Source of the DNA: a virus
Taxonomy: Duplodnaviria > Heunggongvirae > Uroviricota > Caudoviricetes
Virus record (IMG/VR): IMGVR_UViG_648276653_000019
Strand: one strand, 5' to 3'
Length of the DNA stretch: 45,892 nucleotides
Below are positions 9,001-12,000 of this stretch, one piece after another. Each line of letters opens with the position of its first letter. Within the stretch, counting starts at the first letter, position 1. The position numbers are program-made.

Positions 9001-12000
9001 ATTGCATTTGATTTTTCAATAACAACTAAATCTGTTACTTCACTCATATATCCTCCGTCAAAAAATTGCCCTCACACTGGAGGGCAAAGAAGATTTCCAA
9101 TAATCAGAACAAGTCGGCTCCTGTTTAGTTACGAGCGACATTGCTCCGTGTATTCACTCGTTGGAATGAATACACAGTGCTTATTCGTACTAATAAAACA
9201 CCCAGTTTTCTGTTTCTTGGTTGTGTCCAAAGTTATATTCAATATCTGGTGTTGATGTATCAATATTCTTCATCCCATCAACAAGAGTTGATACAACAGC
9301 CAAATCTTGTTTGATTCTCATTAAATGGTATTTCTTCCGGCGCAATAAACTTTCAATGGCAAGTTTCTTCGTTGGGAATGCAAAAGATCTTTCTGCATTT
9401 TTTGCTACTTTCTTAATTGCATATCTATTTCTCTTTTGTTTCCATTCCTGTAACCACTGATTTGGTGCTGGTTTAAAATTAACAATCCAATGCGCAGGAA
9501 CCAACCATGCATAATGCTCTGTCTGATGAAAAGCTATATATTGAAGTGCGAATATTTTTATCCCATCTTCTTCAACTGTCGCCTGGAATCTCCAGAAAAC
9601 AGGCATTCCATCATGTTCAGTTTCTGATTCAGGAAAAGGTACGCTCCATGATTTTGTCATATCTCACCTCAAATAAGTGGTTTGCTGCGAAAGTAAATAC
9701 GCTTAAGTTACCTGTTATTTATCCCACCAAGTTCCGTATCTATCTATCCAGTTACACCAATCATCGACACTCCATTTTGTTGTGTCGCATTTTGGCAACT
9801 GGCATGAATATCTACCTTCTTTGTAAAGTCGGCGTTTGACTTTCTTGAGCATGGCTCACCTCAATCGTAATAAGCTGGAATTGATTTTCCGCGTTGCTTC
9901 TGGCGGCCTGAGCATGTCACACCCATTTCACTGCGTGGCTTGCTGTACCATGTGCGCTGATTCTTGCGCTCAATACGTTGCAGGTTGCTTTCAATCTGTT
10001 CGTGGTATTCAGCCAGCACCGTAAGGTATATCGGATTCAGTGCGCTTTCTACTCGTGATTTCGGTTTGCGATTCAGCGAGAGAATAGGGCGGTTAACTGG
10101 TTTTGCGCTTACCCCAACCAACAGGGGATTTGCTGCTTTCCATTGAGCCTGTTTCTCTGCGCGACGTTCGCGGCGGCGTGTTTGTGCATCCATCTGGATT
10201 CTCCTGTCAGTTAGCTTTGGTGATTGGATGGCCGGCGCTGAACCCCGGCTTACTGGTTAGAGCGCCCGCACTACCAGTGACGCTGTCTTGAGGCGCAGAT
10301 TGGTTACTGCTTGCCATGAGCGCTGTTTATACATTGGTCGAGCATCAGCCTGCTCATTCATCCAATCCCAAAGCCTTCTGCTTTGAATGCTGCCCTTCTT
10401 CAGGGCTAAATTTTTAAGAGCGTCACCTTCATGGTGGTCAGTGCGTCCTGCTGATGTGCTTAGTATCACCGCCAGTGGTATTTATGTCAACACCGCCAGA
10501 GATAATTTATCACCGCAGATGGTTATCTGTATGTTTTTTATATAGATTTATTTTTTGCAGGGTTGTGTGGATTGGGAAGGTGATCGAGAGATCTGAATTG
10601 CGATGTTTAGTGAGTTGTATCTATTAATTTTCAAATAAATACAATTGGTTATGTGTTTTGTGGGCGATCGTGAGGCAAAGAAAACCCGGCGCGGTGGCCG
10701 GGTTTATTTATTGCTTAGGAGCTTGTTGTGATGACGATTGGTTAGTTGGAGCGCTCGTTAATGGTTGCTGTGTCGGTACCTGTATTATAATTGGAGCCGG
10801 GCTGGTTACTGATGGTGACTTGTCATTGCCGGAGATAATCCAACTTGAGGCTAACATCACGCCAGACAGAATCACAGTAACTAAAGTCAAGCCAACGGCC
10901 ATCGCCCACTGAGTCGTTGTAAGTCCCGTTTTCAAACCGCCGATTTCACCTTTAATTTCAGCAATACCTCTCTCAATAGAAGAAAATTGCTGAGTATAAT
11001 AGGTTTTAAAGTCAGCTGATTCGCGACGCATTTCCGCAGCAATAGACTCTACCTCTGATTTGTTTTGTGAAAGCTTTGCGTCAAGTTCTTCTCTGGACAT
11101 TCCGCTCACGCTTACCTCCAGGGTATCACTCTTCATCGCTACATCTTCCTTACTTGGGCGCAAACCCGTTTCGTCCATGGCGTATGAAACTCTATTTGAT
11201 ACCTTAGCATCAATACCAATACTTTGGTACTGAGATGGATCCCCATAAGGAGAAACGGTTGTCGCTGCTAGGGTTGCACTAACTATAATACTTGGAAGAA
11301 CTGATGATGTTGTTCCTGAGGTAGGTTGAACTGAAGAAACTGGCTTCAGTCTTTCCATAGCCCATTATCCCTGAGAGCTACCTGTAATGATTTTACTAAT
11401 GCAACAGCTTGATCCGGGCTCATTGAGACTGACATGTTAGGGGTCAACTCAACTTTTACTTGGAAGCTATTCTTTCCTTGCTCATCAGACTGCATGTGAT
11501 GCTCAAATTCATGGCGGTAAAAAGTAATGATTGTTTCAGCACGATCAGGCGTAATAAGAACTGATGTGGCGGTCATGTGCTGAGGTATGATTTTAATAGT
11601 GTTATCTGACATAAGTATCCTTTTTGTTTCCTTAGTATTTTTTTGCATTGACATCAGAAATAGCGAATCCACAAGAGTATGAGTAAAGCTAATCAGTTTA
11701 GTGATACGGTGACTATTAAAGTGGTAAACCACATCAAAGCTCGCAGAGTGCATACCAGGCTGTCACACATGACAAAGTAACGAGGATGCCTGATCTCATA
11801 GCGCTCAAAGAGACATGCCGATAATGGCATTAACCACGCATGACGCCATAAACACGCCGCCAACGATGAAGCTGGCTTGGTTCTTCCTGGTAGCGCCAAG
11901 AGTCAACAGAACCACTGAAAGGGCAAAAAAAGGTATCGCGATTATGCTGAACGTGTTCATGTTGACCTCAACTTATTTCGATTCTCCATCACCCTTAATC

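Follow-up and report, generated by a model that had tools for sequence, protein, structure and literature searches.

The interval between cI and N in lambdoid prophages is a documented hotspot of lysogen-expressed exclusion genes, among them rexAB, bstA, 933W stk and 434 hex (PMC8585504, PMC3564112). We analysed this interval in IMG/VR virus record IMGVR_UViG_648276653_000019 (Caudoviricetes; 45,892 nucleotides, the whole of which is called the window here). The place of lambda rexAB is taken there by a cassette whose conserved core is a pair of genes, gene 49 and gene 48 of phage HK97, encoding a small soluble protein (gp49) and a membrane protein with one predicted transmembrane (TM) helix (gp48). 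We tentatively propose, at somewhat under even confidence, that the two form a lysogen-expressed sensor–effector pair and a candidate phage-exclusion module, mainly because the slot is such a documented exclusion-gene hotspot. In lambda, RexB crosses the membrane several times, and RexA, of about 280 amino acids (aa), binds DNA. Functionally, RexAB comes closest to the pair: both occupy the slot from the cI stop codon to the tImm terminator, presumably on the pRM transcript, and both comprise a soluble and a membrane component, with the soluble gene the first of the two after cI. Membership of RexAB nevertheless fails for want of homology, gp49/gp48 having no sequence similarity to it and no PADLOC, Pfam or NCBIfam hit. 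The pair also differs in that gp48 is a single-span protein whose coiled coil is long and whose N-terminus is disordered, that soluble gp49 has only 88 aa, and that genes 49 and 48 overlap. BstA of BTP1, Stk of 933W and Hex of 434 likewise share the hotspot downstream of the repressor and have lysogen-expressed exclusion functions (PMC8585504, PMC3564112), but they are unrelated to gp49/gp48 and are single cytoplasmic proteins rather than a soluble and membrane pair.

The fit of the cassette to the rexA/rexB slot, as claimed in the first-pass annotation, was exact, lambda homology ending precisely at both cassette edges. On the left, window positions 10367-10704 correspond to lambda 35494-35826 (93%), a span with OL and nutL, and on the right 12042-13111 corresponds to lambda 37231-38300 (98.6%), a span with cI, OR, cro and nutR (blastn). 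Between them, a swapped segment of 1,337 bp (10705-12041) stands in place of lambda rexB-rexA 35827-37230, that is, of 1,404 bp of lambda DNA comprising rexB, rexA and the rexA–cI spacer. The junctions are 10704/10705, at the terminator, and 12041/12042, at the cI stop codon; on the latter side lambda homology restarts at 12042, 4 nt inside the cI stop region. The order on the minus strand within 10400-12900 is the lambda immunity-type cI (12038..12751), a 51-codon open reading frame (ORF) called orf51 here (11805..11960), a 192-bp spacer (11613..11804), the 88-codon gene 49 (11346..11612), the 216-codon gene 48 (10708..11358) and a terminator hairpin (10682..10705). The coordinates and shared orientation of the three ORFs and the earlier description of their surroundings were correct, including the near-identity of the repressor to lambda cI (234 of 237 aa identical) and the tImm-like hairpin, a G+C-rich, tImm-type intrinsic terminator with a 9-bp stem (six GC pairs) that is followed on the minus strand by the T-run TTTTCTTT. 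The suggestion that each ORF has its own ribosome-binding site held for two of them, GAGG lying 7 nt before the start of orf51 and a Shine-Dalgarno-like AAGGA 6-7 nt before that of gene 49; the gene 48 start overlaps the gene 49 stop by 13 nt.

How the cassette would be transcribed can be read from its position. The OR/pRM/pR control region in the cI–cro interval (12752..12851) falls within the 98.6% lambda-homologous block that holds the lambda-annotated OR1-3, and a pR-like promoter was predicted on the plus strand at 12799-12827. A simple consensus scan predicted neither pRM nor any sigma-70-like promoter on the cassette strand from cI to gp48. An Rfam scan of 10300-12900 gave no match, and an inverted-repeat search returned nothing convincing. 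The minus-strand spacer between orf51 and gene 49 has a GC content of 0.40 and, in these scans, no minus-strand promoter and no Rfam match; it contains a perfect palindrome, TGTCAtgtgTGACA, at 11761-11774 that was not flagged by the promoter, terminator or Rfam scans. Because the cassette occupies the exact slot, ends in a tImm-type terminator and has no predicted internal promoter on its strand, co-transcription from pRM with cI, the upstream gene of the presumed transcript, would be the simplest reading for its genes in lysogens. Morons are additional stretches of DNA inserted between conserved genes; their GC content deviates, and each has its own terminator and its own promoter active in the repressed prophage (PMC3594210). 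The cassette shares with morons, in the sense of Juhala and Hendrix, a deviating GC content (0.436 against 0.503 for the window), the terminator at its end and mobility between immunity types, but differs in the result of the promoter scan.

The sequence proved not to be novel, a point that the first-pass annotation had missed. The cassette DNA is 99.5% identical to genes 48 and 49 of HK97 (GenBank AF069529 / NC_002167), deposited as hypothetical proteins, and is thus already public; the HK97 records give Gp48 as the 216-aa ORF and Gp49 as the 88-aa ORF, with no function. It is also 99.8% identical to the corresponding DNA of HK225 (gp42/gp43), whose repressor differs. The HK225 identity spans window 10674-12062 and enters the 3' end of the repressor gene by about 25 nt or about eight codons (window 12038-12062; about 4366-4390 of locus L002), the repressors being otherwise different, and the right-hand recombination junction therefore lies inside the repressor coding sequence. 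The cassette is moreover 100% identical to the chromosome of Escherichia coli MS 85-1, where the window forms a lambdoid prophage beside ybhC, in the lambda attB region. Its N gene (9861-10193, minus strand) is lambda-like (92% to lambda) and gave no match to HK97 N, and its nutL/OL region is lambda-like as well (93% to lambda); by these matches the prophage is a lambda/HK97 mosaic distinct from HK97. Among 5,426 complete E. coli genomes, 52 carry the cassette, all at ≥99% identity; the isolates concerned are of human, poultry, bovine and water origin. Among IMG/VR contigs, identical copies stand behind at least four repressor contexts, namely a full lambda-type cI, the repressor type of HK225, cI matches that are partial or chimeric, and repressors without cI similarity. 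Near-identity in 52 E. coli genomes and occurrence behind differing repressors indicate a recently spreading, horizontally mobile cassette. The search behind cI in other prophages thus located it after several repressor types, the three-gene make-up being limited to the recent E. coli cassette.

Beyond these near-identical copies, it is the gp49/gp48 pair that recurs. As the first-pass annotation stated, the three proteins could not be assigned to a characterised family: Pfam, NCBIfam and PADLOC scans matched none of them to one, and the PHROGs families that hold gp48 and gp49 (phrog_26809 for gp49) are of unknown function. A gp48 profile search of 1.84 billion representative proteins returned 193 clusters at E≤1e-3, of which 106 passed E≤1e-10; at 50% identity the family thus comprises about 190 clusters. 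Homologues of gp48 (27-51% identity) and the few relatives of gp49 (45-66%) keep both length and the 13-nt overlap, and on this ground the two ORFs can be taken as genes and not chance. All 36 loci examined outside the near-identical HK97-type cassette had a small partner gene upstream of the gp48-like gene. At 31 of 31 diverged loci with a callable target ORF (24 viral contigs and seven genome or metagenome look-ups; a further locus, L060, had no callable ORF), the partner is a small ORF, 84-165 aa long, that comes immediately before the gp48-like gene (-56 to +39 nt). Scanning with gp49 added four loci, L090-L093, in which a gp48-like gene overlaps by 13 nt. The gp49-like loci number 29, of which 22 are near-identical HK97-type cassettes, taken as paired, and seven are diverged and were checked individually; in those examined individually a gp48-like gene came next with the same overlap, which is conserved across all gp49-type pairs. 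Longer starts for gene 49 (135 aa and 128 aa) were rejected, as the 88-aa start is the one at which homologues from Klebsiella and elsewhere begin.

A small upstream gene followed by a downstream gene is the order typical of type II toxin–antitoxin operons. One explanation for the pairing is therefore a toxin–antitoxin-like addiction module that stabilises the prophage, in which gp48 would be a toxin of the membrane and gp49, encoded upstream and coupled to it in translation, would neutralise it. The type II likeness is one of arrangement only: the small gene overlaps the membrane protein gene (by 13 nt in gp49-type pairs, with -56 to +39 nt family-wide), and interacting-looking parts of the two proteins are exchanged together in a pair-specific manner, as described below. 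Pfam, PADLOC and NCBIfam scans matched no toxin–antitoxin family, and no DNA-binding fold was recognised in gp49 by profile comparison with solved structures, AlphaFold2 (AF2) modelling or fold search. The idea moreover overlaps with phage exclusion, many toxin–antitoxin systems being abortive-infection defences, and on its own we consider it very unlikely.

The pairing is not one of fixed partners. At least six sequence types of partner protein were found, including a CxxC...CxxC zinc-ribbon type. Profile–profile comparison linked type A (gp49) to type B (E 6.5e-5, probability 64%) and type B to type C (E 1.3e-5, probability 81%), and in a joint alignment I29, F31 and A69 are near-invariant. 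Zinc-ribbon-like proteins with two CxxC pairs (111-131 aa) take the gp49 position in L016, L045, L052, L055, L058 and L065-L067, and proteins of 147-165 aa do so in L048 and L059; the conserved membrane protein has therefore been combined with unrelated-looking partners. In a comparison of locus pairs that are not phylogenetically independent, the gp48 N-termini were similar in 18 of 49 pairs with the same partner type and in 0 of 251 others (Fisher p 3e-16), while the part after the conserved helix was shared irrespective of partner type (odds ratio 1.16, p 0.73). As the N-terminus is tied to the partner and the C-terminal part is not, recombination evidently separates a 'partner + N-terminus' unit from a 'helix-TM-tail' unit. 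This co-exchange agrees with the proposal that gp49 may bind the N-terminal segment of gp48.

The architecture of gp48 was modelled with AF2 from an alignment of 100 relatives. The N-terminal segment, residues 1-88 (11095..11358, minus strand, as are all parts of the gene), is predicted to be disordered, with a predicted local distance difference test score (pLDDT) below 60, and carries the partner-type-specific motif SIIVSATLAATTVSPYG. It is followed by a long helix (MSREELDAKLSQNKSEVESIAAEMRRE...) at residues 89-139 (10942..11094; pLDDT >90), a probable coiled coil, and, after a hinge, by a single TM helix at residues 145-178 (10825..10926) with the hydrophobic stretch WAMAVGLTLVTVILSGVMLASSWII. 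Residues 179-216 and the stop codon (10708..10824) form a Pro/Gln/Ser-rich, predicted disordered and presumably periplasmic tail with the motif PAPIIIQVPTQQP and a Lys near the C-terminus. The TM helix is thus single, as first described, but not C-terminal, a 38-residue Pro/Gln-rich tail coming after it. The model offered no globular fold usable for a fold search, and profile comparison of gp48 and gp49 with solved structures returned coiled-coil noise only (E≥0.02). The helix is the most conserved region of the family (..SREELDAKLxxNKAEVxxVAAEMRREMAxFR..); in 63 of 100 relatives an [ST]-[RK]-x-E-[LI] motif precedes NKAE at a constant distance. The motif P-(I/V)3-x-V-P recurs in the tails of many relatives; some have (AP)n repeats and some are tail-less, L090-L093 ending right after the TM helix with partner and slot kept. 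The near-identical homologues L051, L053, L054 and L056 differ only in the number of Ala-Pro repeats (about 7 to 10 AP units), a polymorphism that suggests either slippage or selection on the length of a spacer. In most members of the family the C-terminal tip is rich in Lys (..QNSK, ..APKQ, ..KKSK).

Two families resemble gp48 in outline. Its length is more than twice that of XhlA, the PBSX haemolysin-like lysis protein (PF10779) to which the 216-aa architecture had been likened. The general plan of an N-terminal coiled coil and one TM helix is shared, but gp48 gave no XhlA hit at E≤1, and XhlA was outside the 25 Pfam families most matched by 100 relatives (E≤0.01). XhlA also belongs to a lysis cassette, whereas gp48 lies in the immunity region, with the holin and endolysin of the window about 10 kb away; the likeness to XhlA was thus not borne out. 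With the CCDC90-like family (PF07798, formerly DUF1640; MCUR1/CCDC90B and prokaryotic membrane proteins) gp48 shares the outline of a probable coiled-coil stalk followed by a TM helix. HK97 gp48 itself scored E 0.12 (12.6 bits against a cut-off of 33.5 bits), and 39 of 100 relatives match at E≤0.01, the best at 2e-8. A beta-layer motif marks the start of the DUF1640 stalk (Hartmann et al., PMC4786415), and the [ST]-[KR]-x-E motif at the helix start of gp48 resembles it; the pattern [ILMVFYT][STN][RK]x[DEQ][LIFMV], present in 63 of 100 relatives, is similar, not equal, to the published [aliphatic]-A-T-K-[polar]-[DE] (PMC4786415). This resemblance hints at a trimeric coiled coil for gp48, as a lead and no demonstration, and the link to DUF1640/CCDC90-like proteins appears weak. 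gp48 differs from them in lacking a folded head domain, its N-terminus being disordered, in its prophage context and in its obligatory small partner.

This affinity could be read in another way, as lysogenic conversion of host physiology, in which a tail-anchored coiled-coil scaffold of the ElaB/YqjD or DUF1640/MCUR1 type would alter envelope, stress or stationary-phase behaviour to a phage-independent benefit. The tail-anchored AF2 architecture, the weak DUF1640/CCDC90-like matches of the relatives, the presumed expression in lysogens and the range of sources of the 52 carriers would all suit such a role. The gp48 family is, however, nearly confined to accessory hotspots and to contigs of prophage or viral origin, and its rapid partner swapping and mosaicism look like arms-race diversification, not a benefit of the housekeeping type; we think this reading quite unlikely.

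The partner, gp49, lacks both a signal peptide and a hydrophobic segment, and on that basis is presumed cytoplasmic. Four beta strands and a C-terminal helix are predicted at low confidence (AF2 pLDDT 50-70 over the gp49 part).

The third gene has a different history. The minus-strand orf51 encodes a small membrane protein of 51 aa, two hydrophobic helices with a TRKNQ loop between them, and its homologues fall into 35 clusters (67-98% identity), nearly all of 51 aa. Against the chromosomal homologue of Atlantibacter the ratio of non-synonymous to synonymous substitution rates (dN/dS) is 0.07, with synonymous sites near saturation, which argues for a real gene under strong purifying selection and against a chance ORF. 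Homologues in Atlantibacter, Lelliottia and Klebsiella have ordinary chromosomal, non-prophage neighbourhoods, and Kosakonia and Raoultella also have chromosomal homologues. Within E. coli, orf51 is confined to the 52 cassette-bearing genomes and is usually unannotated, the Prokaryotic Genome Annotation Pipeline (PGAP) calling it in some only (WP_001091427.1); the HK97 records leave it unannotated, and those of HK225 have annotated ORFs on the opposite strand where it lies. Diverged gp49/gp48 pairs are without it. The three-gene unit first described is accordingly not the conserved one, which is the gp49/gp48 pair, and orf51, with its chromosomal homologues and its absence from diverged pairs, looks like a separately captured host small membrane protein. 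A history of this kind has been proposed for HK97 gp15 and YebO (PMC3594210). Like orf51, gp15 is a tiny inner-membrane protein of an HK97-type phage with mostly chromosomal Enterobacteriaceae homologues (PMC3594210), but the two genes differ in genome position, and the likeness is one of size and of where the homologues lie. By analogy, a gp15/YebO-like exclusion role for orf51 is possible.

Such a role forms part of another explanation, superinfection exclusion at the entry step, in which gp48, the 51-aa peptide or both would block DNA injection at the inner membrane and the cell would survive, as with HK97 gp15, P22 SieA and T4 Imm, with gp49 as an assembly or stabilising factor. Both gp48 and orf51 are inner-membrane proteins by architecture; many gp48 relatives share the presumed periplasmic P-(I/V)3-x-V-P tail motif and (AP)n spacers of variable length; and gp15, a captured host small membrane protein derived from YebO, serves this very purpose (PMC3594210), orf51 also having chromosomal homologues. 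We rank entry exclusion second, and unlikely, because the tail-less relatives L090-L093 keep partner and slot, which argues somewhat against periplasmic recognition. In addition, the parts that are exchanged together, the partner and the gp48 N-terminus, are presumably cytoplasmic, and intracellular specificity fits them better.

As a rule, the gp49/gp48-like pair follows directly on the repressor gene of a prophage. In many viral contigs and in Klebsiella, Kosakonia and Yersinia, the repressor ahead of a diverged pair is of the S24 type or helix-turn-helix (HTH)-only, and 20 distinct genes just upstream of the pair gave matches to HTH_3 (12), Peptidase_S24 (nine) and Phage_CI_repr (five), with one Arc/Mnt-like and one KilA-N/Rha antirepressor gene. 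This tight, recurrent linkage to the repressor across unrelated immunity types raises the possibility that the pair regulates the life cycle of its own phage, tuning the lysis–lysogeny switch, induction or lysis timing as RexA or antiholins do. A role of RexA/RexB in the lysogenic-to-lytic transition has been documented (bioRxiv 10.1101/2021.04.19.439022; PMC11077077), and a coiled coil with a TM helix is also seen in some lysis regulators. No DNA-binding or holin/antiholin family was matched in the Pfam and NCBIfam scans, though, and the near-identical pair of L090-L093 stands behind four different repressors, against what would be expected of a repressor-specific partner. Some members, too, are outside immunity regions. 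Regulation of this kind seems to us improbable, to much the same degree as a conversion of host physiology.

We therefore return to phage exclusion, for which the following mechanism may be envisaged. The genes would be read from pRM together with cI in lysogens. gp48 would form an oligomer anchored in the membrane, and gp49 would bind its N-terminal segment in the cytoplasm, SATLAATTVSPYG being a candidate for the interface region. The pair would then exclude other phages as a sensor–effector (or antitoxin–toxin-like) module: once gp49 had sensed a trigger, gp48 would disturb either the inner membrane or an infection step that is bound to the membrane. gp49/gp48 would in this way functionally replace RexA/RexB, with orf51 carried along in the E. 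coli version. A broader form of the proposal is that gp49/gp48 is the founder of a class of repressor-linked prophage immunity modules, in which a tail-anchored, probably trimeric and distantly DUF1640/MCUR1-like inner-membrane protein would be restrained through its disordered N-terminus by an exchangeable cytoplasmic sensor (at least six partner types, including the zinc-ribbon type) and would abort or block infection on sensing phage. This wider idea is possible but doubtful.

Several observations weigh against the exclusion proposal. PADLOC-DB v2.0.0 contained zero families matching any of the three proteins at E≤1, and no defence-associated domain was found in them; the accessions of gp48 and gp49 are not listed in the DefensePredictor supplements. 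No functional study of HK97 gp48 or gp49 was found in the literature searched. Membrane-disrupting activity is not evident from the sequence, and transcription in lysogens is deduced from the arrangement of the locus. An AF2 fusion of gp49, a linker and gp48(1-120), built with 14 paired sequences, reached a mean pLDDT of 48 and gave no trustworthy interface; a Foldseek search with this model yielded best E values of 0.44 (PDB) and 0.16 (BFVD), rejected as meaningless. A short strand at gp48 residues 26-29 in the same model was rejected as an interface (pLDDT about 30). Co-inheritance of N-terminus and partner could reflect physical linkage instead of binding, and the non-independence of the locus pairs mentioned above counts here too. 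Finally, a minority of pairs has another location, either among late genes, as morons, or in immI-like regions of the Arc/Mnt/antirepressor kind.

Further small genes accompany these regions. In a Yersinia intermedia prophage (L005, 3746-4691), two genes whose products, of 132 aa and 135 aa, both begin with a single hydrophobic helix lie between the S24 repressor and the partner/gp48-like pair, and look like another small accessory pair stacked in the hotspot. In the window, the N–cIII interval, where lambda has the sieB/ral region, encodes hypothetical proteins of 322 aa (8079-9047) and 156 aa (9190-9660) on the minus strand; the latter ORF corresponds to HK97 Gp45 by length and position only. 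This interval is a further accessory slot with uncharacterised genes.

The cassette is a real, ordinary-looking, uncharacterised accessory cassette in a classic hotspot of a model phage, a good experimental candidate and no surprise. Biology has few genetic systems as good as HK97 and lambda, yet the HK97 replacements of rexAB are without assigned function. In the literature searched we found no recognition of the two-gene family, the obligate partner, the linkage to the repressor, the exchange of N-terminus with partner, or the 51-codon gene. If the pair does not act in defence, its strict linkage to repressor genes still wants explaining. If it is an exclusion system, the known defences of prophages would gain a new design of sensor and membrane effector, compact at about 0.9 kb. 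It would also show how a conserved membrane effector receives exchangeable specificity modules, each a small partner with the disordered N-terminus that matches it, and would provide the first functional handle on the bacterial DUF1640-like tail-anchored coiled-coil proteins.

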